A DNA stretch of 64,000 bases from Acidobacteriota bacterium. Its GTDB lineage: Bacteria; Acidobacteriota; Vicinamibacteria; Vicinamibacterales; UBA2999. Every line of letters starts with the position of its first letter. Position 1 is the stretch's first letter. Under the pieces are notes generated by a model. It was not told the origin of the DNA. It searched no databases and worked only from the letters and a program-made list of their open reading frames with translations. The position numbers and the translations under genes were made by a program. Where the stretch lies: NCBI GenBank assembly GCA_031404695.1, contig JANNIB010000346.1:155-64154 (forward strand), given 5' to 3'. This document shows, in pieces, positions 13,835-64,000 of this stretch.

Positions 13835-14227
13835 CTAGGCGCGGCGCTTGACGGCGGCGACGGCCCCGCCAACGAGATAGCAGACCGACATCGCGACCGC
13901 GAGCACGGCGGAGGCGACCATCGGCTGGTAACGTCCGTCGTAGAGGCCGACCGCCGCCCACACGGTGAACCAGAGCCACGGACGGGCAAACTGCAGGGCG
14001 CCGCCGACGGGCCCGGCCAGTCCGCGCGCCACAGTGAAGAACCCGAACGCGCCCGAGCCCAGCCCTGCGGCCACCACCGTGCCCTGCGCCGTCGTCCGGG
14101 CACCGAGGAACACGGCCGTGACGATGACGGTGAGCGCCACGGTGGCGAAGGCGGCATAGATGCCGGGCAGGATTCGGGACGACGCACGCAGCACGAGACT
14201 GCCGTCGAGTATACCGGCGCAACTCAC
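13835..14227 (-). CDS. Small integral membrane protein (about 130 aa, about 4 TM segments), unknown family
   Basis: Hydrophobic segments PGIYAAFATVALTVIVTAVFLG, VVAAGLGSGAFGFFTVA, WLWFTVWAAVGLY and MVASAVLAVAMSVCYLVGGAVAA. I infer a GTG start at 14227 that overlaps the radical-SAM stop (GTGA). The longer ORF 13835..14434 would overlap the radical-SAM gene by 210 nt. Confidence 0.55.
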   Translation of the reverse strand: MSCAGILDGSLVLRASSRILPGIYAAFATVALTVIVTAVFLGARTTAQGTVVAAGLGSGAFGFFTVARGLAGPVGGALQFARPWLWFTVWAAVGLYDGRYQPMVASAVLAVAMSVCYLVGGAVAAVKRRA

Positions 14228-15345
14228 CAGCCTTCCTGCCGCGACTCTCCCGGCAATGCCGTGAACGGCCGGAGGTACGGTGCGAGGTAGCGCAGTTGCG
14301 TGGGGTCGCGGCGCGATCGGCCCCAGGTGTGGGCGAAGTCGAACCAGATGGGCACGCCGAGCGTGTGTGCCATGTCGATCGCCTGCCGGAACTGCTCGTC
14401 GCGATCGTTCCACGCGAAGACGACGTACTGCCACACCACCTGCACGGAGGTTCCGCGCGCCAGGCCCGCCGCGTGCGACAGATGCTTCCAGCCCCGGGCG
14501 AAGGTGCCGCCGATGCGGTAGCGCTGGTAGCTGGCCTCGTCGCAGCCATCGAGCGAGAACACCAGGCAGTCCACGAGGCGCTCGTTCACGATGGCCGCTG
14601 CCGTCGCCTCGCGCACGTGCTGCCCATCGGTGGATACCGCAACGACCGCCGCCGGCATGACGTGGCGGACGTGGCGGAGCGCCTCGACGAGTCGTGGGTA
14701 GAGGAACGGCTCGCCGTAGTTGAAGAGGTCCACGCGCTCGACGCCTGGCCCGGCTTCAGACACCACGCGCTTCAGGACGTCGATCGGCAGGGTGCCCCGT
14801 CGTGACGCCGGTATCCGGCCACGCAGCAGCAGCGCCGCCGCGCGTGACCGCTGCGGCACCGGCGGAATCCACGAGGCTGGCACCAGTTTCTGGATTCCGT
14901 CGGCGAGGTGCTGCTTGGCCCGGCGCAGGCCGTCCCACGCGAGGAAGCGCGCTCCGCCGTCGCGATAGGCATCCCGCCAGGTGGTATCACCGGCGATGTC
15001 GCGCACCGGGCACGACAGGCAGCGCAGGTCGCAGGTCGTCGTGGGTTCGATAGCGAGGAACCGCAAGGCGGTCGCAATCGACTCCCCGGGTGGCGCCGGC
15101 AGGGTCTTGAGCGCGCATGTCTTTCCGACCGCGCGGCAGTATTGATCGGGCGTGGACAGCACCAGTGCACGCAGTTCGCGGGCGCGCGGACCGTCGAGGA
15201 TCGCGGGCAACGACGTGGCGTGCACGTTCCCGAGAACGAACTCGCCGCGCCCATCGATGATGCTGCAGACGACATCGCCGTTGGCATGCACCGACGCCGC
15301 CTCGAAGGCGTGCCGACACCGACGTCCGACGGTGCCGGCAGTCAC
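14224..15345 (-). CDS. Radical SAM protein with an N-terminal SPASM/twitch-like Cys domain (unusual domain order)
   Basis: CxxxCxxC at aa 105-112 (IEPTTTCDLRCLSCP) and NYGEPFLYP at aa 209-217. The N-terminal 80 aa, C-RHAFEAASVHANGDVVC-SIIDGRGEFVLGNVHATSLPAILDGPRARELR...QYCRAVGKTC, resemble a SPASM domain. Confidence 0.75.
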   Translation of the reverse strand: MTAGTVGRRCRHAFEAASVHANGDVVCSIIDGRGEFVLGNVHATSLPAILDGPRARELRALVLSTPDQYCRAVGKTCALKTLPAPPGESIATALRFLAIEPTTTCDLRCLSCPVRDIAGDTTWRDAYRDGGARFLAWDGLRRAKQHLADGIQKLVPASWIPPVPQRSRAAALLLRGRIPASRRGTLPIDVLKRVVSEAGPGVERVDLFNYGEPFLYPRLVEALRHVRHVMPAAVVAVSTDGQHVREATAAAIVNERLVDCLVFSLDGCDEASYQRYRIGGTFARGWKHLSHAAGLARGTSVQVVWQYVVFAWNDRDEQFRQAIDMAHTLGVPIWFDFAHTWGRSRRDPTQLRYLAPYLRPFTALPGESRQEGW

Positions 15346-15366
15346 CGGCGCCTGCCCGCGCGCATG

Positions 15367-18016: not shown

Positions 18017-19399
18017 CTATTTGCCGAGCAGTTCGACGAGGTAGTCGAGGGCGACCTTGGACTTCATGACGCTGAGCCGCTGCACGAGCGCCCGCTTCAT
18101 GGCCGGATCGCCTTCCTTGCGCGCGAGGCTCACGAGCGCCTCGGCGTTGTTCTGCACGAACAGCCCCTCGATGGCCGCCTGACGCACGGCCGGTTCCTTC
18201 TGGACGACGTAGATCTCGACAATCGCCGGGCCGGTGGCGCTGGCGCGCATCAGTCCGAGGTTGCGCACCGCCACGCGGCGCAGTTCGACGTTGGGCTCTG
18301 ACTTGGCCAGCTCGATGAGCCGCGCCGAGTTGCCGCCGACGAACATCGCCTGCAGGATCTCGCGCTTCACATCGGCCGTGCTCTCGCGCTGATAGAGCTG
18401 GTAGAGCTCGTCGTGCGCGCCCATCACGCCGAGCTGACGCACCGCTTCGGTGCGCACCTCGGCCTGGGTTTCAGTGGTCGCGGCCGCGAGCACTCGGGCG
18501 CGATCGCCGGCCACCATGTAGGCGCGCAGGATGCGGCGCTTCACGTCCGGCTCGGCCGACGGGTAGAGTTCCGCCAGCAGCGCGCGGTTCTCGCTCGAGC
18601 CGTGCACGCCGAGGTAGTCGATGGCCTTGCGCTGCAGGTCGGGATTGCCCTGGCGGGCGACCTCGGCGAGCGCCTTCCGCGCCTCGGGCGAGCCGCTCTG
18701 CGCCAGCACGAACAGCGCCCGCTCGCGCAGCTTGATCGACTGCGCGCTCTTGAGGAGCTGCTCGAGCATCGGCAGCGCCTGCTCGGGCGACGAGAACTGG
18801 AGGGCGTTGAGCGCCAGCAGCTTCAGCTCTTCGTCGCCGGCGGCATCGAGCGCCACCGGCTGGCCGACCCGCTGGCGCACCTGCACTTCGAGCGCGCGGG
18901 CATCGCCGAGCCAGCGGCTCAACGGATGCGCCTTGCCGAGTTCGGCAATCACGGTGAGCGCATCGGCCCGACGGCCCAGGCGATCCAGCGCATACGCCTT
19001 CCAGTAGAGGGCCGCATCGACACGCACGCCGGCCGCCGCCACCACCTCCTGCAGGCGGTCGAGCGCTTGCGCCCACTGGCCCTCGTCGATGGCGCGGCGG
19101 GCGCGGTCGTAGTCGCGCTGTTCGCTGGCGCGTGCGCGCGCCAGTTCCGCGGTGGCCCGCGCCTGTTCCACGCTGACGCGCGCGTCCTCGGCCACGCGCC
19201 GTTCGACCTCCCGCACCTGGCGCTCGGCTTCGCGTGCCTGGCGTTCGGCCTCGCGGGCGCGCGCCTCTTCGTCGAGCGCACGGCGCGAGTCGTCGAGCTG
19301 GTGGCTGGCGGTCAGGGCCGGCGGCAGCGGCGCGTCGGGCACGTCACGGGGCAGCAGCGCCGTGGCGGCGGTTATGAGAATCGTTCCCCACACGGTCAT
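18017..19399 (-). CDS. HEAT-repeat protein with an N-terminal anchor and a charged coiled-coil segment
   Basis: MTVWGTILITAATALL (TM/anchor) is followed by REAERQAREAERQVREVERR, a TPR-like stretch and multiple HEAT-like repeats (RERALFVLAQSGSPEARKAL, RKAIDYLG, RRVAVRNLG, VRQAAIEGL). The ATG at 19399 overlaps the anti-sigma stop (ATGA). Confidence 0.8.
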   Translation of the reverse strand: MTVWGTILITAATALLPRDVPDAPLPPALTASHQLDDSRRALDEEARAREAERQAREAERQVREVERRVAEDARVSVEQARATAELARARASEQRDYDRARRAIDEGQWAQALDRLQEVVAAAGVRVDAALYWKAYALDRLGRRADALTVIAELGKAHPLSRWLGDARALEVQVRQRVGQPVALDAAGDEELKLLALNALQFSSPEQALPMLEQLLKSAQSIKLRERALFVLAQSGSPEARKALAEVARQGNPDLQRKAIDYLGVHGSSENRALLAELYPSAEPDVKRRILRAYMVAGDRARVLAAATTETQAEVRTEAVRQLGVMGAHDELYQLYQRESTADVKREILQAMFVGGNSARLIELAKSEPNVELRRVAVRNLGLMRASATGPAIVEIYVVQKEPAVRQAAIEGLFVQNNAEALVSLARKEGDPAMKRALVQRLSVMKSKVALDYLVELLGK

Positions 19400-20187
19400 G
19401 ATGTCGGTCCCTTTCGAAGGTTCGTCTCGGGCCGTTGCCGCGCGCGCAGCTCGTCGGTGAGCACGCGGACACGGAACAGCAGGCTCTGAGTCTCGATGCG
19501 CGCCTTGAGCGCCGTCCAGTCGTCGGCGGTCGCGTCGTCTGGCGCGTTGGCGATCTCGACCAGCACGCGCTCCAGGTCGTCGAGCACGACGTCGAGTGAG
19601 TCGTCGCCGGCCAGCGCCGCCGTCTGGCGGACCAGCCGATTGGTCGCCACCAGGTCGGTGGCCCGCTGACGCTCGGACGCGAGCGCGGCGCCGGCGTCGT
19701 CGGAGGCGCCGTTGGCGACCTCCGTGAGCACGAGCTGGGCGCGCACCAGGTGATCGCCGACCGCCAGATCGAGCAGCCGCGCGCGCGCCGGCGCCTCGGC
19801 CGCGGCCGCGGCCGTCGAGATCGACGTCGCGACCGCAGGCGTCGGCTCGACGACATCGCGGCCCTGGCGTCCGGCATAGAAGGCGATGGCCACGACACCC
19901 GCCATCGCTGCGGCCACGGCCCACCGGGCGGCACCGCCCTGCCACAGCCGCTGCCACCACGGCGCCGGCGTCAGGAGCTGGTTCTGCAGCCGCGCCCACA
20001 TGGTGGCCTCGTAGCCGGCGCCGGGTTCGCCTTCGCCACTGGCCTCGACCAGTGCCAGTGCCTGCTGCAGCCGCTGCAGCGCGCCGCGGCACTCGGCGCA
20101 GGACGCCAGGTGCAGATCGAGCCGTGCGGTGTCGTCGCCAGACTCGCCGTAGTAGTGCAGCACGAGGTGGTCGTGTGTCGGGTGCAT
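19396..20187 (-). CDS. Anti-sigma factor (zf-HC2-like N-terminus, single TM)
   Basis: HLVLHYYGE...LDLHLASCAECRGAL matches the H-x3-C-x2-C pattern. The TM segment is WAVAAAMAGVVAIAFYA. The gene lies 10 nt downstream of the ECF sigma gene. Confidence 0.75.
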   Translation of the reverse strand: MHPTHDHLVLHYYGESGDDTARLDLHLASCAECRGALQRLQQALALVEASGEGEPGAGYEATMWARLQNQLLTPAPWWQRLWQGGAARWAVAAAMAGVVAIAFYAGRQGRDVVEPTPAVATSISTAAAAAEAPARARLLDLAVGDHLVRAQLVLTEVANGASDDAGAALASERQRATDLVATNRLVRQTAALAGDDSLDVVLDDLERVLVEIANAPDDATADDWTALKARIETQSLLFRVRVLTDELRARQRPETNLRKGPTS

Positions 20188-20197
20188 GCGTCCGGTC

Positions 20198-20779
20198 CTA
20201 CTCTCCGTGTCGCGCGTCCACGAGCGGCTCGAGCACGAGCCGCATCTTCCTTACGGCGCGGAACACGCTGTGTTTCGCGGCTTCGGTCTTGAGTCCGAGC
20301 GAGGTGCCGATTTCGTCAATCGAGCGCCCTTCAAGGTGGCGCAGCATGAACGCCGCGCGTTCGAGCGGCGTGAGCCGGCCCAGGCCGGCCGTCACACGCT
20401 CGCCGATCTCGGTGCTGAGCATCTGCCGGTCGGGCAACGGCGGCTGGCTCACCGCCGTGTCGCCGCTGGCCACGGTGTCGAGGTCGTCGATCGACTGCGC
20501 ACCGGCGCGGTGACGCCGCCCGCGGATGAGATCGATGGCGCAGTTGACCGCGATTTTGTGGAGCCAGGTCCGGAAGTCCGCCCGCGCTTCGAAGCGCCCC
20601 AGCTGCCGGTAGGCCTTCAGGAACGCCTCCTGCACCACGTCTTCGGCGTCCGAGTGGTTCCCCGTCATCCGATAGGCCACGCGATGCACGTAGCGGCTGT
20701 GGCGATCGACCAGCACGCGAAAGGCGTGCGGGTCGCCGCCACTGACGGCCGCCACGGCGGCCCGGTCGGTCTCGTGCAT
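20198..20779 (-). CDS. ECF-type RNA polymerase sigma factor (sigma-70 family, regions 2 and 4)
   Basis: FRVLVDRHSRYVHRVAYRMTGNHSDAEDVVQEAFLKAY (region 2) and LTPLERAAFMLRHLEGRSIDEIGTSLGLKTEAAKHSVFRAVRKMR (region 4). Confidence 0.9.
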   Translation of the reverse strand: MHETDRAAVAAVSGGDPHAFRVLVDRHSRYVHRVAYRMTGNHSDAEDVVQEAFLKAYRQLGRFEARADFRTWLHKIAVNCAIDLIRGRRHRAGAQSIDDLDTVASGDTAVSQPPLPDRQMLSTEIGERVTAGLGRLTPLERAAFMLRHLEGRSIDEIGTSLGLKTEAAKHSVFRAVRKMRLVLEPLVDARHGE

Positions 20780-20865: not shown

Positions 20866-21303
20866 TCAGGACGGCGCCAATCGGGCCTTTCCGAAGGTCT
20901 TCTGCAGATGCGCGATCGACGCCTTCACCAGCTTCTTCAGCGTCGGCAGATGGAGGTCGCTCAGCCGCTTGACGTAGATGCAGGAGACGCCGTGCGAGAC
21001 CGGTCCGAGCGCTGTGATGAGGTCGTCGTAGCCCTTGAAACCCGGCATCACGTAGACGACGAGGTTCTTCACCCGCGGTGAGAAGGCCACGAGCGGCCAG
21101 TCGCGTTCACGTCCGGCCGCATATTGATAACGATACGCGCCGAAGCCGACGATGCTCGTGCCCCACAGCACGGCGGGCGCTTTGGTGACAGCCGTCAGGA
21201 TTCCGACGAGCGCGGTGCAGTCGTCGCGCAGAAGCGGATCTTTGACCTTCGCGATGAAGGCGGCCACCGAGGCGGTCGTCGGTCGCGTCTTGGGCTCGGC
21301 CAC
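20866..21303 (-). CDS. DUF1801 (YdhG-like) domain protein
   Basis: VAEPKTRPTTASVAAFIAKVKDPLLRDDCTALVGIL...LWGTSIVGFGAYRYQYAAGRERDWPLVAFSPRVKNLVVYV. A GTG at 21303 is preceded by GGAGGA. The longer ORF reaching 21480 is an extension. Confidence 0.7.
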   Translation of the reverse strand: MAEPKTRPTTASVAAFIAKVKDPLLRDDCTALVGILTAVTKAPAVLWGTSIVGFGAYRYQYAAGRERDWPLVAFSPRVKNLVVYVMPGFKGYDDLITALGPVSHGVSCIYVKRLSDLHLPTLKKLVKASIAHLQKTFGKARLAPS

Positions 21304-21325
21304 AGCGGTCCTCCGCGTGGATGGG

Positions 21326-22303
21326 TTACTGCGCCAGCGCCTTCGGATCGATGCCCGTGCCCAGCGTGAACGACGACCCGACCGCGCCGACCAGAGCGGC
21401 CTTGCGTGCCAGCCCGAGCGCCTGACGGATGCGGAACACGGCTTCGATGCCGGTGCAGTGCGCGCCGAGGAAATACGCAAGGCGCGCCTCCTTCAACTTC
21501 GACGCCGTCCACGCCAGCGTGTCGTCGGAGGCCGCAAACAAATGGAAGCCACCAATCGCCGCATGCACCTGGGTGTTCTGGACGGCCTTCTGCGCGTATT
21601 CGAGCGTGTTGACGATGCCGGCATGGCCGCAGCCGCTCACGACCACCAACCCCTGCGCCGTCTGCACCACGACCGACGAGTCTTCCGGCACGTTGTCCTC
21701 GACCGGCCCGTTCGCCGTCTGGAGCCGGGTGTTCACGCTCCAGTTCTTCTCGGGATAGGTGCGCGGCACCGGGCCGGTCATCCACACGCCGGGCGCCAGC
21801 CGCGTCGGCTTGTCGTACTCGACGAAGGTGCCGCCGAGCTTCTCGTATTCGGCTTTGATCGGCAGCAGACCGCCGCCCTCGCGGCCCTGCCGATCGAGCC
21901 GGCTGGTGAAGATCCCCTTCGCGACGTGCGCGCGGCTGAGCGCCGCCGGATTCTTCTTCGCCATCTCGCGGCGCAGTGTCAGCAGGCCGCCGGTGTGGTC
22001 GTCGTGGTTGTGCGTGATGACGAGGTCGGTGATGGTGGACAGATCCACCTTGAGTTCGGCGGCGTTCTTCAGCACCGTCTCGGCGCGCGCTCCGGTGTCG
22101 ATGAGCCAGCGCTTGCCGTCCACCTCGAGCACGGCGGCAAAGCCCCATTCGCCCACGCCTTCACGGGCGTTGCCGACCAGCATCGTCGACAGCACCGTGA
22201 CTTTCATCGTCTTCACGGGCGGGTCGGACGACTGGGCCACGGCCGGCCCGGCGAGAGCCACGAGCGCCGTGACGGCGAACAACAGCTGAGCGGCCTGCAT
22301 TTG
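21326..22303 (-). CDS. MBL-fold metallo-hydrolase, secreted
   Basis: Signal peptide MQAAQLLFAVTALVALAGPAVAQ. The motif ITHNHDDHTGG (HxHxDH) and a later SGCGHAG block are present. Confidence 0.85.
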   Translation of the reverse strand, partial: QMQAAQLLFAVTALVALAGPAVAQSSDPPVKTMKVTVLSTMLVGNAREGVGEWGFAAVLEVDGKRWLIDTGARAETVLKNAAELKVDLSTITDLVITHNHDDHTGGLLTLRREMAKKNPAALSRAHVAKGIFTSRLDRQGREGGGLLPIKAEYEKLGGTFVEYDKPTRLAPGVWMTGPVPRTYPEKNWSVNTRLQTANGPVEDNVPEDSSVVVQTAQGLVVVSGCGHAGIVNTLEYAQKAVQNTQVHAAIGGFHLFAASDDTLAWTASKLKEARLAYFLGAHCTGIEAVFRIRQALGLARKAALVGAVGSSFTLGTGIDPKALAQ

Positions 22304-25727: not shown

Positions 25728-27058
25728 CACTGTCTTTCCGCCGTCAGGCTGAGCCCCGCGCCGTCGTTCACGTACACCACACGCCCGCCCACGATCGTCA
25801 CCGCGGCGGCGCCGCGGAACGTCCAGCCGTGGTACGGCGTGTTCTTCGACTTGCTGACAAGGCGCGTGCGGTCGATGGTGACGCTCTGTTCGGGCGCCAG
25901 GATGGTGATGTCGGCGACCTGGCCTTCGGCCAGGCTGCCACCGGCCACTTTCAGGATCCGCGCCGGGTTGACCGACATCAGCTCCACCAGGCGCGGCAGG
26001 CGGATCACGCCGCCGTGCACCAGCTTGTCGAGCGCGATCGGGATCGCGGTTTCGAGGCCGACGATGCCGAAGGGCGCGCGGTCGTACTCGACGTGCTTCT
26101 CGTCGGCATGGTGCGGCGCGTGGTCGGTGGCGATGACGTCGACGCTGCCATCGGCGATGCCGGCGAGCATGGCGTCGCGGTCCCTGGCCTCGCGCAGCGG
26201 CGGATTCATCTTGGTGTTGGTGTCGTAGGCCACCGGCGCGGCGATGAGGTCGTCGGTGAGCGTGAAGTGATGCGGCGCCACCTCACAGGTGACCGCGACG
26301 CCGCGGCTCTTGCCCTGGCGCACGGCCTCGAGCGTCGTCCAGGCGCTCATGTGGGCCACGTGCACGTGCCCGCCGACCATCTCGGCGATGAGGATGTCGC
26401 GGCCGGCGGTAATCGCCTCGGCGATGCCGGGAATACCCTTCAGGCCGAGCGAGGCCGCAATCGGCCCCTCGTGCGCCACGCCCTCGCCCTTGAGCGACGG
26501 GTCTTCGCAGTGTTCGATGAGCGGCATGCCGAACATGCCGGCGTATTCCATGGCGCGGCGCGCCAGCAGCGCCGTGGACACGGGATGGCCGTCGTCGCTG
26601 ATGGCGACGCAGCCGGCCGCCTTGAGCTCGGCGATGTCGGCGAGTTGCTCGCCCTGCTGCCCGCGCGAGACGGCGCCGATCGGGTAGACCCGCGCCAGGT
26701 TGGCATCCGCCGCCTTCTTGAGGATGAGCTCGGTGACGCCGGCGTTGTCGTTCACGGGCCTGGTGTTCGGCATGCAGGCGACAGCGGTGAAGCCGCCGGC
26801 CACCGCCGAGGCGACCCCGGTCGCCACCGTTTCCTTGTGCTCCTGCCCCGGCTCGCGCAGGTGCACGTGCATGTCGATGAACCCTGGACAGACCACGAAC
26901 GCCGGCGACAGCGCGATCACCTGGCCGCCGTCGGCCAGACTCACCGGCAGGTCGCGCCCGACCTTGGCGATGACGCCGCCGTCGACGAGCACGTCGTAGG
27001 CGCCGTCGATCCCATTTGCGGGGTCGACGACCCGCCCGCCCTTAAGCAACCACTTCAT
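25727..27058 (-). CDS. pyrC: Dihydroorotase
   Basis: 443-aa ORF with [14 protein letters not shown], a later DHAPH block and an amidohydrolase fold. It sits in a pyr gene context. Confidence 0.9.
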
Positions 27059-28019
27059 CTTGAGCTCCGCCTCCGGCGAGGAGATACAACACCGCCATCC
27101 GCGCGGCCACGCCGTTGGCCACCTGATCCAGGATCACGGAATAGGGCCCATCGGCAACTTCGCTCGAGATCTCGACGCCGCGGTTGATGGGGCCAGGGTG
27201 CATCACGATGACGTCGGGCTTGGCCCGCGCCAGTCGTGCTTCGGTCATGCCGAACACGGTGAAGTACTCGCGCAGCGACGGGAAGAAACCGCCTTCCATG
27301 CGTTCGAGCTGGATGCGCAGCATCATCACGACGTCGGCGCCTTCGACGGCCGCCTCGACCGACGAGGTGGTCGTCACGCCCATCGCCGCCAGCCCCATCG
27401 GGATGAGCGTGGGTGGCCCGCACACCCACACCTCGGCGCCGAGTTTCGTGAGCAGCAAGACGTTGCTGCGCAGCACGCGGCTGTGCAGCAGGTCGCCGAC
27501 GATGGCCACCTTCAGGCCCGCGATCCGGCCCTTGCGCTCACGGATCGTGAAGGCGTCGAGCAGGGCCTGGGTCGGATGTTCGTGCAGCCCGTCGCCGGCG
27601 TTGATGATCGGCGACTTGCAGATGCGCGCCAGCAGGTGCGGCGCGCCCGACGAGGCGTGCCGGATCACGATCATGCTGGGCCCCATCGCCTCGATGTTCC
27701 GGGCCGTGTCCACCAGCGTCTCGCCCTTGACCACGCTGGAACTGGCGACCGCCACGCCGAGCGTGTCGGCGCTCAGGCGTTTCTCGGCAATCTCGAACGA
27801 CGTGCGCGTGCGCGTGGACGGCTCGAAGAACAGGTTCACGACGGTGCGGCCGCGCAGCGCCGGCACCTTCTTGATCTGGCGCTGCGAGATCTCCTTCATC
27901 GCCTCGGTGGTGTCGAGGATGAGCAGGATCTCCTCGGGCGTCAGCTCGGCGATGCCGAGCAGATCTTTGCCGCGCAGCGCCGTCGCCGGCTGTGCCACTT
28001 CCACGGTGGGCGCCGTCAT
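27042..28019 (-). CDS. pyrB: Aspartate carbamoyltransferase catalytic subunit
   Basis: The blocks [23 protein letters not shown] and [11 protein letters not shown] are present. It overlaps pyrC by 17 nt. Confidence 0.95.
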
Positions 28020-53960: not shown

Positions 53961-56861
53961 TCAGTGTACCTTGAGCCGCCAGACTCCCTGCCCGTGCGTG
54001 CCGGCATACAGCACCCCGCGCTCGGGCACGTAGACGAGATCCGATACCGTCACGTTGGGCAGGCCCGCCGCCGTACTGTGCCAGACCTGCGAACTCTTCT
54101 GCTTCTGCACGACGCCGAAGTCGTTGCCGACGTAGAGCGTGCCCTTCGGGCTGACGATCACCGATGTGGCCGGAATGTCGCCGAACCCGTTGATCTTGTG
54201 TCCGTCCAGGTTCGTGAAGGTCACCGCGCCAGTGGCCGGGACGTAGCGCACCTCGAAGACGTGGCCCGGCGTGGCCGGCGTCTTCACGTTGAAGCCGCTG
54301 TAGGTGATCCACGCATGGTTCGCGTCCTCCGGATCCACGAAGATCGAGGTCGGATAGCGCGGCGGGTCGTTGGCGGCGCGGCTGTCGAGGCGCGTGAACG
54401 CGACGCTCGCCGGCACCAGCGCGTCGGCGTTCTTCGACACGAACACGCGTCCGAGGCTGGTCGCGACCCACAGGGTGGATGAGTCGCTCTTCGCGCGTTC
54501 CACCACCGACACGCTGCCGCCGGCGCGATCGCCCCACACGGGCGCGCTCAGGCGGCCGTTCGCGCCGGGATCGCCCAGTGGCTTGAAGTCGTCGCAGATA
54601 TCGGTTGCCGGTTCGTAGATGCCGTTGCCGTCGATGTCACCAGAGCCCGTCCACACGTTGCAGGCTGCCAGCACATCAGCCCTCGGAAACAGGGGATTGA
54701 GGCCGTGGTTGCCAGCGCGGAAGACGTGCTCGCGTCCGTGCCAGAGCTGTCCGGGCACGACCGGATCGGTGATCGCGTTGCCGATGAACGGTACGAGTTC
54801 GTTGCCGTAGAAGACGAACATGGTGTCCGACACCCACGTGACGTCGGTCTGGTTCTGCGGGGTGAAGCTCACTTCCAGCTGGCCCTGCTGCCAGGCGGTC
54901 ATGCGGAACGCCGGGTTCCCGCCGAGGGCGTCGTAGGCGTTGTGGCCGCCGTCGGCGATGTTGGTGTTGAGCCACGTGTCGCCGCCCACCGTCTCCCAGG
55001 ACCCGTTGTCCTGCGTGCCACCGGTGATGATGTCGGGATTCGCCTTGTTGTATTCGATCTGGTAGAAGTGCAGCGTCCGAAGGCCCTTGTTGATGGGTTC
55101 GAGCCGCTCGGGGATGCGCGCGAGCACCAGGCGGCAGAACGCCAGCCGCGCCGCATTGGTGATGCCCTTGACCGCGTCGCAATCGCCGGAATCGTCGACG
55201 AAGTTCCCGTTCGAGCGGATGATGCCGCCGTCGCCCAGGTCGAAGAACTGCTGCCAGTTGCCGGGGTTGGTCACGAGGGCGTGGTGATCGGGATGCGCCT
55301 GCACCGGATACACGTTGTCCGATGCGTCCTCGGTCATGTCCGTGAAGTGCACGCCGGCGTTGGTGGACAGAAGGATGCCCCGGCCGTTCGATCGCCCCGA
55401 GACGTTGTTGTTCTCGTTGTATTCGTAGTCGCCAAGCAGGTAGACCGTGTCGGGGCCCGCGCCGGGAGGCACGTAGACATCGTTGTCGTAGCTGCACTGG
55501 CCGTCACAGTAACCGAAGCTGGAATAGCCAGCGGGGTTCGTCGACACATTGGAGCTGGTCAAGTCGATCCAGCCGGCCAGCGCCGTCGCGGCCGAAGTCA
55601 GGCGCACCGCGTCGTTGCGACGGAAGCGCGCGAAGAGACCGCCGCCCCCCACACCCACGTACATACGCGTTTCGGTGCCGAGCTGCACCACGTCGAACTC
55701 CGCACGCTCGGCCGTGCCCGATCCCAGGAGGGGCATGATCCGCTCCCAGGTGTTGCCGAGATCGCGCGAGCGCCAGATGCCGCGCGACAGGAACGAGACG
55801 TAGACCGTGTTCGGGTCCACGGGATCGAACATCACGCGACGGGCGCCGCGCGGCGCGCACGGGGTCAGATTCAGCGCCACTTGGTCCGGCGTCGACGCCG
55901 TGCACAGCGCCGGCGCGCCCTGGGTGACCAGCTGCCAGTTGCTGCCGCCATCGACCGAGCGATACAAGCCGAAGTGTGGGGCGCCAGGAATCAGCGCATC
56001 GACGCCGCCGCAGCACGTGTTCGAGACACCCAGGACACCGCGGCCCGAGGCCGCGAAGACGACATCGGGATTGCCCGGTTGCACCGCAATCGAGCCCACG
56101 GCCCGACCGGCAAACTGCGCGCTGCCGATGGGACCCTTCCACGACTTGCCGCCGTTGTTGCTCTTGTAGAGACCAACACCCGCCGTGCATCCGCTGCCGC
56201 ACGCGTTCGGTTCGCCCGTGCCGGCCCACAATGTGTCGGCGGACGGGTCGTTCGGGTCGAGGATGATCTCGGCCACGTTGTTGTGTTCGAAGGTGTGGGA
56301 CTGGAACTCCCAGGCCGGCTCGGCGGCCAGCGCATCGCGCGTCATCCACACCCCGCCGTTGGCGTTGGCCAGCCACAGACGGCAGTTGCCGACGACGCAG
56401 TTGGGATCGATGGCGGCCGCAATGGAGCGGCCGCTGAAGTTGTCGGTTCCCGCGTTGTAGACCGTGCGATCTCTGAACGGATTGTCGGCGCCCTTTCCGT
56501 AGACCGGGCCAAGGGGCGTCCACGCGCCGCCGCCAACGGCCGGCCGCGCCTTCAGTCCGAGCCAGGCGCCGCGCGCCCCGGCGAAGGCAGCGTACGGGAT
56601 GTCGGTGCCCGGCGTGGCGTGCTCGAGCCAGTCTTGCGCGCCCGTGCCGCCCGCAGCCTCTTCGAGCAGCGTGGCCGCACCCGGCGAGAACGTGGCCATG
56701 GCCGCGAACTTCGTGGCCAGGCCGACTGGAAGTTTCTTCAGTCGTCCGGTCTCGGGTGCCTGGACGGAAGACTCAATGGGCCCGGGACGAGAAGTGGCGA
56801 GTGGCGAGATCAACGCCGCCACGGCGAGAGTCAGGGCGCCGAGGTACAACCGTTTTCTCAT
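53961..56861 (-). CDS. Large secreted BNR/Asp-box repeat protein (sialidase/xyloglucanase/Vps10-like beta-propellers)
   Basis: Signal peptide MRKRLYLGALTLAVAALISPLA. Asp-box-like motifs are present: YKSNNGGKSWKG, YRSVDGGSNWQL, WRSRDLGNTWERI and LSTNAGVHF. Confidence 0.8.
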   Translation of the reverse strand: MRKRLYLGALTLAVAALISPLATSRPGPIESSVQAPETGRLKKLPVGLATKFAAMATFSPGAATLLEEAAGGTGAQDWLEHATPGTDIPYAAFAGARGAWLGLKARPAVGGGAWTPLGPVYGKGADNPFRDRTVYNAGTDNFSGRSIAAAIDPNCVVGNCRLWLANANGGVWMTRDALAAEPAWEFQSHTFEHNNVAEIILDPNDPSADTLWAGTGEPNACGSGCTAGVGLYKSNNGGKSWKGPIGSAQFAGRAVGSIAVQPGNPDVVFAASGRGVLGVSNTCCGGVDALIPGAPHFGLYRSVDGGSNWQLVTQGAPALCTASTPDQVALNLTPCAPRGARRVMFDPVDPNTVYVSFLSRGIWRSRDLGNTWERIMPLLGSGTAERAEFDVVQLGTETRMYVGVGGGGLFARFRRNDAVRLTSAATALAGWIDLTSSNVSTNPAGYSSFGYCDGQCSYDNDVYVPPGAGPDTVYLLGDYEYNENNNVSGRSNGRGILLSTNAGVHFTDMTEDASDNVYPVQAHPDHHALVTNPGNWQQFFDLGDGGIIRSNGNFVDDSGDCDAVKGITNAARLAFCRLVLARIPERLEPINKGLRTLHFYQIEYNKANPDIITGGTQDNGSWETVGGDTWLNTNIADGGHNAYDALGGNPAFRMTAWQQGQLEVSFTPQNQTDVTWVSDTMFVFYGNELVPFIGNAITDPVVPGQLWHGREHVFRAGNHGLNPLFPRADVLAACNVWTGSGDIDGNGIYEPATDICDDFKPLGDPGANGRLSAPVWGDRAGGSVSVVERAKSDSSTLWVATSLGRVFVSKNADALVPASVAFTRLDSRAANDPPRYPTSIFVDPEDANHAWITYSGFNVKTPATPGHVFEVRYVPATGAVTFTNLDGHKINGFGDIPATSVIVSPKGTLYVGNDFGVVQKQKSSQVWHSTAAGLPNVTVSDLVYVPERGVLYAGTHGQGVWRLKVH

Positions 56862-56994
56862 AGGTACACCCCAATCAAGGTCTTGACCGCGTCGATCCGG
56901 TTGAATCGACTCTCGGGACGGCACGGGCCGCCGCCGGGCGGGTATTCTTGGGCGGCCGAGTGAGTCCAGTCAAGGTCGATCTTCGAAATCGGAA

Positions 56995-60259: not shown

Positions 60260-60937
60260 TCAGGCGCGGGCAACGAGGGGATCGACGGCGCCAGCGTCGG
60301 CGAAGCCGGCGGCGCGCAACAGACAACTGTCGCAATGGCCGCACGGACGGCCATCGGCGGGCGGGTCGTAGCAACTATGTGTGAGGCCGTAGTCGAGGCC
60401 GAGCGACAAGCCCAGGCGCACGATTTCGGCCTTCGACAGCGCGATGAGCGGGGTGTGCACCCGGAAGGCCGCGCCTTCGACGCCGGCCTTCGTACCCAGA
60501 CCCGCCAGCGTCTCGAAGGCGCGGATGAACTCGGGCCGGCAGTCGGGATAGCCCGAGTAGTCGAGCGCGTTCACGCCGATGACGAGGTCGGTGGCGCCGA
60601 CGACTTCGGCCCAGCCGAGCGCCAGCGACAGGAACACCGTGTTGCGGGCCGGTACGTAGGTGACGGGAATCACGGCCGGATCGATCGGCTGATCCTTGGG
60701 TACGGCGATGTCGTCGGTCAGCGCCGAGCCACCCATCCGCGACAACTCGACATCGATCTCGAGGTGCCGGGCGACACCGAGTGCGGCCGCCACGCGGCGC
60801 GCGGCGTCGAGCTCGGTCACGTGCCGCTGGCCGTAGCGCACGCTGAGCGCGTAGAGGTCGAAGCCGTCGCGTCGGGCCACGGCGGCGGCGGTATAGGAAT
60901 CCAGGCCTCCGCTGAGGAGGACGACGGCGGCGGGCAT
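60260..60937 (-). CDS. queC: 7-cyano-7-deazaguanine synthase
   Basis: [18 protein letters not shown] and [14 protein letters not shown], plus a C-terminal Zn motif [20 protein letters not shown]. Confidence 0.9.
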
Positions 60938-61041
60938 CGGCCTATCTTCCCACGCCGCTGGAAGCGCTACTGATACCCTGACCCGGCGCAGCGTCCGGCG
61001 CCGCCACGTCCCTCCAGCCCGAATCTGGTACAACCCGGAGT

Positions 61042-61455
61042 GTGCGGCTCCTGACACCCGTGGTCGTCATCCTTCTCGCGTGCGCCTGCGGCGGTACCGC
61101 TCCGGCGCCAGGCTCGACCGACACCACCGCCGGACCACTGGCGATCGTGACCCTCGCGACCCCGGAGCCCGGCGCCGCCTCCGCCCCCGCGCCGCCCGTC
61201 ACCGTGGCGAAACAGACCGCCCAGGTGCAGATCCGGGTCACCGGGTTCGATCGCCCCGCCGACGAGCTCACGGCGGAGCTCGAATCCGTCGCCACCGGCG
61301 AGATCCGCCGCTGGCCGGTGGACGCCGAACCCGGTGGCGCCATGACGGTCACGGTGCCGGCCTACGCCGTGGGCGCCGGCGCGCACGTGCTCAGCATCTG
61401 GGCGGGCGACGCCGACCTGCTGCGGCGCTACGCCTTCCAGGTCGTGGTGCGATGA
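61042..61455 (+). CDS. Small lipoprotein, unknown function
   Basis: (V)[17 protein letters not shown] contains a lipobox LLAC. The mature part of about 115 aa is beta-rich. Confidence 0.6.
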
Positions 61456-61522
61456 GGCCGCGCGGCCCCGCCGCGGTCCTTGCGCCCGGCCCCGGGGCCA
61501 GAGGAGACTCTGGAGGGCCGTC

Positions 61523-62452
<930 letters not shown>

Positions 62453-62469: not shown

Positions 62470-63111
62470 CTAGACGCCGCGCACGTCAGCGCCCCAGATG
62501 TACTTGTGCACCTGGAGCTGCACGCGCACCGGCAACCGATCCTCGAGCACCCACTCGGCCAGCGACTTCGCATCGAGGCGGCCGTGCACGGGCGAGACGT
62601 GCACCGCCGCGACCTTCGACGTCAGGTGCTCGCGGGCGATGATCGCGCGGGCGTAGTCGTAGTCGGCGCGATCGGCGATGACGAACTTGACTTCGTCGTG
62701 CGGCCGCAGCCGCGCGAAGTTCTCGATGTCGTGCTTCGCCGCTTCGCCGCTGCCCGGGCACTTGACGTCCATCACCACCGTGGCCCACGCCGGCACCGGC
62801 GCGATGCTGCGATGCCCGCCGGTCTCGATGAGCACCTGGTGGCCGGCCGCGTGCAGACGCTCCATCAGCGGATACAGGCTTTTCTGCAGCAGCGGCTCGC
62901 CGCCGGTCATCTCGACCAGCGGACAGCCGAAGCGCGTCACCTCGGCCACCACGTCATCCACTGACATCTTGCGGCCTTCGTGGAACGCGTATGGACTGTC
63001 GCACCACACGCAGCGCAGGTCGCACGCCGTGAGGCGCACGAACACGCACGGCCGCCCCGCGTAGGACGACTCGCCCTGGATGGAATGGAAGATCTCGTTG
63101 ACGGTCAGCAT
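62470..63111 (-). CDS. queE: 7-carboxy-7-deazaguanine synthase (radical SAM)
   Basis: MLTVNEIFHSIQGESSYAGRPCVFVRLTACDLRCVWCDSPY and EMTGGEPLL. Confidence 0.9.
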   Translation of the reverse strand: MLTVNEIFHSIQGESSYAGRPCVFVRLTACDLRCVWCDSPYAFHEGRKMSVDDVVAEVTRFGCPLVEMTGGEPLLQKSLYPLMERLHAAGHQVLIETGGHRSIAPVPAWATVVMDVKCPGSGEAAKHDIENFARLRPHDEVKFVIADRADYDYARAIIAREHLTSKVAAVHVSPVHGRLDAKSLAEWVLEDRLPVRVQLQVHKYIWGADVRGV

Positions 63112-63151
63112 GGCCGCGGCGACGCTTGCCGCAATCGATTATTGTAGTCCG

Positions 63152-63487
63152 ATGCCAACCGCCACGTTCTACACCAAGCCCACTTGAACCACCTGCAGGA
63201 ACGCCAGGAGTTTCCTGGCCGATCGCGGCGTGAACGTCGAGGAACGCGACATCAACAAGGCGCCGCCGTCCCGGGCGTTCCTGGAACAGCACATCGATGC
63301 AAGCGACTTCCTGCGCTTCGTGAGCACGCGCAGCCCGGTCTTCAAGACCCGGGCCCTGCCCGCCTCGAAGAAGGAAGCCATCGATCTCATGATGGAACAG
63401 CCCAACCTCATCAGGCGCCCGATCCTCGTGCGGGGCGCGACGGTGACGTTCGGGTTCGACAAAGAGGCGTACGCCAAAGCGAAATGA
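63152..63487 (+). CDS. ArsC/Spx/YffB-family thioredoxin-fold protein with an in-frame TGA at the active-site Cys position (candidate selenoprotein, UxxC); alternatively a nonsense pseudogene
   Basis: ATG at 63152. The translation is MPTATFYTKPT-[TGA 63185-63187]-TTCRNARSFLADRGVNVEERDINKAPP...IRRPILV...FGFD. The family consensus is Y..p.C.(T/S)CRKA. The track ORF 63230..63487 is the same frame downstream of the TGA. Confidence 0.6.
63203..63219 (+). promoter_or_regulatory. SECIS-like stem-loop 15 nt downstream of the in-frame UGA
   Basis: G-CCAGGA-GUU-UCCUGG-C forms a 7-bp stem with a 3-nt apical loop that starts with G, 25 nt from the U of the UGA. Confidence 0.4.
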
Positions 63488-64000
63488 GCGTGAGGATCGG
63501 CACCTCGGGGTGGAGCTACCCCGGCGGCCGAGGCACCTGGAACGGCGTGTTCTACCCGGCGAAGGAGGCCCGTCCCCGCGGCTTCGATGAGCTCGAGTTC
63601 TACGCCCGCTGGTTCGACACGGTCGAAGTGAACTCGACCTTCTACGGGCAGCCACGCGCCAGGGTCACGCAGGCATGGGCCGATCGCACACCGGCGACCT
63701 TCGAATTCGCGGTCAAGCTGTTCCAGAAGTTCACGCACCCGTCGATGTTCCTGGAGGCCGTCGCGGCCGGCGCCCCCGGCGCGTCCGATGCCGCACTCGC
63801 CGCCGCCGGTGACGTGCGGCAGGCCGACGTCGACGAGTTCAAAGCCGGCGTCGAGCCGCTGGCGCTGGCGGGCAAACTCGGTCCGCTGCTGGTGCAGTTC
63901 CCGCCGAGCTTCATCGCCAGCGCCGCCGGCGTCGACTATCTCGGCTGGCTGCTGCGGACCTTCGCCGACTACGCCGTGGCGGTCGAGCTGCGCCACAAGT
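63484..64000 (+). CDS. DUF72 domain protein (partial, runs off the window)
   Basis: MSVRIGTSGWSYPGGRGTWNGVFYP...LEFYARWFDTVEVNSTFYG is the DUF72 signature. The start overlaps the upstream stop (ATGA). It is not in the ORF track because it has no stop in the window. Confidence 0.8.
   Translation, partial: MSVRIGTSGWSYPGGRGTWNGVFYPAKEARPRGFDELEFYARWFDTVEVNSTFYGQPRARVTQAWADRTPATFEFAVKLFQKFTHPSMFLEAVAAGAPGASDAALAAAGDVRQADVDEFKAGVEPLALAGKLGPLLVQFPPSFIASAAGVDYLGWLLRTFADYAVAVELRHK

Follow-up and report, generated by a model that had tools for sequence, protein, structure and literature searches.

A likely ArsC/Spx-family selenoprotein with a very small SECIS-type hairpin in soil Vicinamibacterales

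Selenoproteins related to arsenate reductase have been described before. "ArsC-like" selenoproteins were listed in 2006 (Zhang et al., PMC1794560), "Arsenate reductase 2" (cd03032, UxxC) was listed in 2008 (Zhang and Gladyshev, PMC2398784), and a review from 2022 includes an "arsenate reductase-like protein" (COG1393, UxxC; PMC9312934). Here we describe a gene whose product, judged by those descriptions and not by sequences, is of the same kind: it has an ArsC/Spx fold, selenocysteine (Sec) would be the first residue of a UxxC motif, there are homologues with cysteine, and a SECIS-type hairpin lies right past the UGA. The published examples are from Deltaproteobacteria and marine metagenomes, whereas ours are from soil Vicinamibacterales, in which the Sec form is the majority. 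Some Acidobacteriota are known users of Sec (PMC1794560 Table 2; PMC12013277 Table 2; PMC13582414). A literature search found no link between Vicinamibacter or Vicinamibacterales and selenium. So, this kind of selenoprotein was already known, and the clade in Vicinamibacterales is apparently unannotated. The NCBIfam model NF041106 for the "ArsC family (seleno)protein" (ArsC_rel_Se_1), which allows for Sec, matches residues 7-107 of our protein, but with a score of 31.1 bits against a cutoff of 85, which indicates a different subfamily. None of the NCBIfam selenoprotein models reaches its cutoff on this protein.

The gene lies near the end of a 64-kb stretch of DNA, the whole of which we analyzed and which we call the window. 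Its features are as follows.

63152..63487, + strand: coding sequence of the predicted selenoprotein (111 codons plus stop; ArsC/Spx fold; U12-T-T-C15 motif)
63185..63187, + strand: in-frame UGA, codon 12, the putative Sec codon, located where CxxC would have its first Cys
63194..63196, + strand: TGC for Cys15, the presumed resolving Cys of UxxC, conserved in alignments
63203..63219, + strand: SECIS-type hairpin, G-CCAGGA-GUU-UCCUGG-C (7 bp and a 3-nt loop; conserved core at 63204-63218; loop at 63210-63212)

From the ATG at 63152, the frame reads MPTATFYTKPT, then the TGA (63185-63187), then TTCRNARSFLADRGVNV in the window translation. The same frame beyond the TGA, TTCRNARSFLADRGVNVEERDINK, stays open until the TGA stop at 63485-63487. 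(A mechanical list of open reading frames has only an 85-aa ORF at 63230-63487 and a 35-aa ORF that terminates at the TGA.) There are no further stops or frameshifts on either side of the TGA, so the gene is intact. An initial annotation of this DNA had pointed out the frame, the TGA, the hairpin, and an overlap with the next gene, and all of those coordinates are correct to the base. Our preferred reading, to which we give a probability of about 90%, is that this is one intact gene for a 111-residue protein of the ArsC/Spx/YffB family, in which the UGA at codon 12 is decoded as Sec under the direction of the SECIS hairpin.

We first consider whether the UGA is conserved. In a scan of GTDB with one genome per species, the codon is TGA in 76 of 80 loci and TGC in the other 4. 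(Nearly all of these loci are from metagenome-assembled genomes of Vicinamibacterales or other Acidobacteriota.) Among 80 loci from JGI metagenomes, 64 have TGA and 16 have TGC, even though the query proteins were of the Cys type. Thus, relatives alternate between Cys and TGA at exactly codon 12, as the initial annotation had hoped to see in orthologues. In alignments to full-length homologues, the TGA falls on the first Cys of CTTC, which is invariant. This agrees with that annotation's view that the TGA sits where the redox-active first Cys belongs. The second Cys of the motif is retained as well: Cys15 is invariant in alignments A3 and A6. In A4, a gap-free alignment of 80 distinct TGA-type sequences whose columns are numbered from the T of the TGA, its codon shows no variation in columns 10-11 and conservation of at least 90% in column 12. 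Genes of the Sec and Cys types share one locus, between a queE-like gene and a DUF72 gene, so we consider them to be orthologues. A rough tree suggests about 7 transitions between Sec and Cys within the family.

Protein databases give a different impression. A search of 5.8 billion proteins found over 3,400 relatives, but no full-length entry of the Sec type; the full-length matches are all at most 76% identical, and nearly all of them have Cys at this position. The four closest relatives in the database (91-94% identity over the shared part) are all called as ORFs of 83-85 aa that start past the TGA. We examined twelve contigs, from independent samples, that encode these four relatives. All twelve have the TGA and the hairpin, and all have the 11 upstream codons except for L012, which ends too early upstream. 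One locus has an unexpected label: L080 (VFZL01000046.1, 4783-5112) is assigned to Acidimicrobiia (Actinomycetota), yet it holds a Sec form that is 77% identical to ours, with the hairpin in its G-C variant. L080 could be either a mis-binned acidobacterial contig or a case of horizontal transfer.

Could the TGA be a sequencing error, or a TGC-to-TGA mutation in a decaying gene? TGC and TGA are one base apart, and gene callers do shorten the ORF. But 152 independent loci of many species, from both genome and metagenome data, share this TGA, and the hairpin is conserved along with it. Also, purifying selection acts on both sides of the TGA, where the frame is unbroken, with no other stops or frameshifts. 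We see only a minute chance of a pseudogene or an error. In particular, the conservation of the TGA and the protein-level selection on the 11 upstream codons exclude the single nonsense mutation that the initial annotation had offered as its alternative.

That selection is apparent from 121 distinct N-terminal segments of the Sec type. The ATG is exactly 11 codons ahead of the TGA in 112 of them. Lys9 and Pro10 never change, and Thr11 is found in 119, with synonymous sites varying freely. Across the 11 upstream codons, the entropy at the three codon positions is 0.64, 0.53, and 1.17. These codons evolve as protein-coding sequence, which is the signature of translation. On the 3' side of the TGA, the sequence (TTCRNARSFLA...) is also conserved as protein, and it is homologous to the Cys forms. 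The UGA is therefore read through.

A different way to account for coding on both sides would be two products: a leader peptide of 11 residues, terminated by the UGA, and an N-terminally truncated protein with a later start (for example, the GTG at 63230), with the hairpin acting in regulation or re-initiation. That GTG does open the 85-aa ORF, and the hairpin does lie between the two. However, no start codon is conserved 3' of the UGA. The best position (+15, where the GTG lies) has a start codon in just 36% of the Sec forms. Furthermore, the stretch from the UGA to the GTG encodes conserved protein sequence that is homologous to the Cys forms, and a truncated protein would lose strand beta1, the redox motif, and helix alpha1. 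We consider two products to be highly improbable.

TGA could also be an ordinary sense codon for Trp or Gly (as in genetic codes 4 or 25). Five JGI proteins (P0006, P0007, P0031, P0047, and P0098) do have a Trp at this position. In the DNA that encodes P0006, though, the codon (L173:539-541) is TGA, and the hairpin follows, so the Trp arose because the gene was called with a code that treats TGA as sense. (Such a Trp conceals Sec forms in protein databases.) Moreover, the homologous residue is Cys and never Trp or Gly. In the window, TGA is the true stop of 24 of the 40 predicted genes, including this one, and it is the most common stop. This implies that the code is standard and TGA is not reassigned. 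A scan for in-frame TGAs with a coding signal on both sides turned up one other in the window, at 2698, which is the normal stop codon separating two neighboring genes. We give a reassigned code almost no credence. (The same scan found no convincing candidates for other selenoproteins in the window or in the flanking sequence.)

If the UGA is decoded as Sec, a SECIS element is expected just downstream. Bacterial SECIS elements generally have a stem of 6-8 bp and a conserved G in the loop about 20 nt past the UGA (PMC4605307). In our window, the hairpin starts 15 nt past the TGA, and a distance of 25 nt separates the U of the UGA from the first base of the loop, G63210. This geometry fits the general bacterial pattern, so the spacing is suitable, as the initial annotation had argued. 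Compared to canonical elements (the type in E. coli fdhF, or the bSECISearch model), the hairpin is very small, with a universal core of 5 bp and a loop of 3-5 nt. It also differs in that we detected no bulged U or conserved lower stem, and there is no Rfam family for it. RNAalifold recovered the 5-bp core but no conserved lower stem beyond it, and the longer fold that is predicted from the window sequence alone is not conserved.

In isolation, the hairpin has a folding energy of -10.7 kcal/mol (z = -4.4), and 0 of 200 shuffled sequences fold as well. Within a context of 66 nt, the z score is -2.1. The pattern was not found elsewhere in the 64-kb window.

The 80 sequences in A4 support the hairpin as a structure. 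Four of the core pairs (columns 20-34, 21-33, 22-32, and 23-31) never vary. The fifth, 24-30 (63208 and 63214 in the window), is A-U in 58 sequences, G-C in 22, and unpaired in none. The first base of the loop, G26 (G63210), is invariant. Within the hairpin, 88% of the cells in A4 are paired, versus 26-54% when the 3' partner is slid along. The covariation was matched by 0 of 500 shuffles, with the caveat that this signal comes from one base pair, as the other four core pairs never vary and are neutral as evidence of covariation. The compensatory switches at the fifth pair are made by synonymous changes, between AGG and AGA (Arg) on one side and between TTC and TTT or TAC and TAT (Phe or Tyr) on the other. 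On a rough neighbor-joining tree of 254 nt, we counted at least seven inferred switches between A-U and G-C, with one G-U intermediate. The sole Sec-type sequence with G-U at this pair is L136, which is plausibly an intermediate between the A-U and G-C states.

Some of the sites in the invariant pairs are synonymous. The Arg codon in the Sec forms is always AGR, in a genome with 70% G+C. In the Cys forms, the same site may be CGG, CGC, CGA, AAG, AAA, or AGR, and the Ala and Leu codons vary too. More broadly, the 5-bp core is intact in all 129 distinct Sec forms (mean of -7.7 kcal/mol), versus 3 of 18 Cys forms (mean of -3.2 kcal/mol). Thus the hairpin is tied to the UGA: with its compensatory pair, it is kept in every TGA form and is absent from most of the Cys forms, which was the check that the initial annotation had suggested. 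Overall, the UGA aligns with Cys in homologues, the frame is under selection on both sides, and a stem-loop with a conserved G goes with the UGA. These properties are those of a bacterial selenoprotein, and they support the interpretation in the initial annotation.

The three Cys forms with the full 5-bp core are L046 (10034-10099), L077 (10034-10099), and L094 (the Cys codon and the next ~60 nt); all three have TGC. They look like recent conversions from Sec to Cys with a remnant SECIS. Remnant SECIS elements in Cys forms are known from other families (PMC1794560, Fig 4 legend).

Although the hairpin may well promote recoding, the residue that is inserted might not be Sec. The alternatives are Cys, delivered by a tRNA(Sec)-like tRNA(Cys)(UCA) and a paralogue of SelB, or Trp or Cys from near-cognate read-through. 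Such a tRNA(Cys)(UCA), known as selC*, has been described along with its SelB* (PMC5389517). However, selC* was reported from anaerobic Firmicutes, Thermodesulfobacteria, Nitrospirae, and Proteobacteria, and not from Acidobacteria, and it was always found alongside a complete Sec system (PMC5389517). In addition, repeated alternation between Sec and Cys, together with the remnant hairpins in L046, L077, and L094, is the classic pattern of a selenoprotein (PMC1794560). And if the product had Cys, there would be nothing to maintain a costly UGA and hairpin in most of the species. We therefore view insertion of another residue as very unlikely, and predict from the sequences that SelB delivers Sec at this codon.

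The machinery for Sec did not turn up near the gene. Within the 64-kb window and about 1.9 Mb of flanking sequence, we found no selA, selB, selD, or tRNA-Sec, but these need not adjoin a selenoprotein gene, so this is uninformative. Specifically, ARAGORN reported no tRNA-Sec in the window or in loci L001-L092; a search of the window against Rfam at gathering thresholds had no hits; tblastn with approximate E. coli sequences of SelA, SelB, and SelD as probes found no match in the window or the loci; and Pfam found no SelA, SelB, or SelD domains among the 40 predicted genes of the window. (ARAGORN did report an 88-nt tRNA-Gly(gcc) at 26114-26201 on the + strand. It is antisense, inside an ORF for a dihydroorotase-like amidohydrolase at 25730-27133 on the - strand, and Rfam confirms no tRNA there, so it is most likely a false positive.)

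The fold of the protein is that of ArsC and Spx. When the stop is replaced by Cys, the resulting protein of 111 residues matches Pfam's ArsC family (PF03960, E = 6e-15, 55.7 bits versus a cutoff of 24) and also Glutaredoxin. It passes the cutoff for NCBIfam's TIGR01617 (arsC_related, Spx/MgsR) marginally, with 78.1 bits versus 75.05. In the AlphaFold model of a Cys orthologue that is 76% identical (pLDDT of 92.6), residue 12 is just ahead of the helix at 13-24. In the thioredoxin fold, the N-terminus of a helix is the usual place for CxxC. By sequence, the nearest matches in PDB are Spx (E of about 5e-11), followed by uncharacterized ArsC-family proteins and YffB. By structure (Foldseek), Spx is at the top by E-value, and YffB and 3GKX are at the top by TM-score (0.80-0.83).

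Spx is a redox regulator from Firmicutes that binds the alpha-CTD of RNA polymerase, and its structures (PDB:1Z3E, 3GFK, 7F75, and 3L78) are the best PDB matches to our protein, at roughly 32-34% identity. The Sec aligns with Cys10 of the C10-x-x-C13 switch of Spx, and the STRS and RRP motifs are common to both proteins. There are also clear differences. Spx has 131-132 residues, while our protein has 111; it stops some 20 residues sooner, without the C-terminal tail. In the alignment, D51-G52 of Spx faces a gap in our protein, and we take Gly52 to be needed for binding the alpha-CTD. Also, our gene is from a Gram-negative phylum and adjoins DUF72 in an operon.

We tried two specific assignments and rejected both. 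The protein is not an orthologue of Spx: besides the gap at Gly52 and the missing tail, it is far below the cutoffs for the Spx models (51.7 versus 123 for NF002459, 30.2 versus 159 for NF009210, and 27.5 versus 152 for NF009885). Nor is it a glutaredoxin-dependent arsenate reductase (41.5 versus 106.05 for TIGR00014, and 23.1 versus 242 for NF007456). Compared to ArsC from plasmid R773 or E. coli (PDB:1I9D), the fold is the same (TM of about 0.75) and the Sec aligns with the catalytic Cys12, but the motif is UxxC instead of CxxS, and as we read the alignment, the arsenate-binding triad has no evident third Arg. Our Pfam scans of the window genes showed no ars genes near the selenoprotein gene.

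It seems unlikely that the protein is a genuine redox-sensing regulator of the Spx type, with Sec as its sensing residue instead of Cys and with a leaderless mRNA, as the standard form across this abundant order. If this were true, it would be the first selenoprotein transcription factor, and the supply of selenium would tune a stress regulon in aerobic soil bacteria.

The genomic context is as follows.

63484..64000, + strand: DUF72 (YecE-like) gene, cut by the end of the window (PF01904, E = 4e-34); ATGA overlap with the stop of the selenoprotein gene
62470..63111, - strand: radical-SAM gene, queE-like (ORF with a Radical_SAM domain), divergent from the selenoprotein gene
63140..63145, + strand: TATTGT, similar to a -10 box, at -12..-7 relative to the A of the ATG, from the upstream consensus

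A DUF72 gene follows directly, in the same orientation, in 117 of 135 Sec-type loci and in 14 of 14 Cys-type loci. The initial annotation saw the ATGA overlap with DUF72 as a sign that the upstream frame is translated to its end. The overlap is real in the window, but only 45 of the 117 syntenic loci of the Sec type show it. As a conserved neighbor whose gene often overlaps, the DUF72 protein is the obvious candidate for a partner. A literature search found no function for DUF72 or YecE.

On the other side, a divergent radical-SAM gene is present upstream in 111 of 128 Sec-type loci and in 13 of 14 Cys-type loci. Profile tools gave only a Radical_SAM domain for the gene at 62470..63111, and we read it as queE-like from its sequence. 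The order-wide arrangement of queE, selenoprotein, and DUF72 hints at a link to 7-deazaguanine metabolism. Further upstream are queC (60263-61066, - strand) and a diguanylate cyclase with cNMP-binding and GGDEF domains (61346-62449, + strand). Elsewhere in the window, five ORFs have a strong coding signature (GC3 of 0.80-0.88): 53964-56969 (-), 14227-15366 (-), 18302-19486 (+), 19399-20250 (-), and 20869-21492 (-). One of these is about 1000 aa, and none has a match in Pfam at E <= 1e-6.

Across 146 distinct upstream regions (L001-L172 and the window), positions -12..-7 have the consensus T(95) A(108) n A(97) A(96) T(94), and roughly two-thirds of the regions have a TAnAAT-like box. Upstream of the ATG, no Shine-Dalgarno-like spacing is evident, and a consensus scan found no full sigma-70 promoter. 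Because of the box at -12..-7 and the lack of Shine-Dalgarno-like spacing, the selenoprotein's mRNA is probably leaderless, which would put the UGA just 11 codons from the 5' end.

Taken as a selenoprotein, the system might work like this. UGA codon 12 would be recoded to Sec, giving a U-T-T-C motif at the N-terminus of helix alpha1. Recoding would be directed by the in-frame SECIS 15 nt downstream (a stem of 5-7 bp and a loop of 3-5 nt, whose first base is a G 22 nt past the UGA): SelB, carrying Sec-tRNA(Sec), would bind the hairpin as the ribosome reaches the UGA. The protein would most likely cycle between a selenol/thiol and a selenenylsulfide, as a redox sensor or a small reductase. It would be co-expressed with the downstream DUF72 protein, and the two may be functionally linked.

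These results leave the known workings of selenoproteins unchanged. They do correct a systematic error in annotation: in every source that we examined, the Sec forms appear as ORFs of 83-85 aa or with a Trp. They also provide a natural series for studying how small a SECIS can be, with over 130 distinct minimal hairpins (a 5-bp core and a loop that begins with G) and Cys forms with or without remnants. Finally, they predict that most Vicinamibacterales, which are a dominant group in soil, have a working Sec system.
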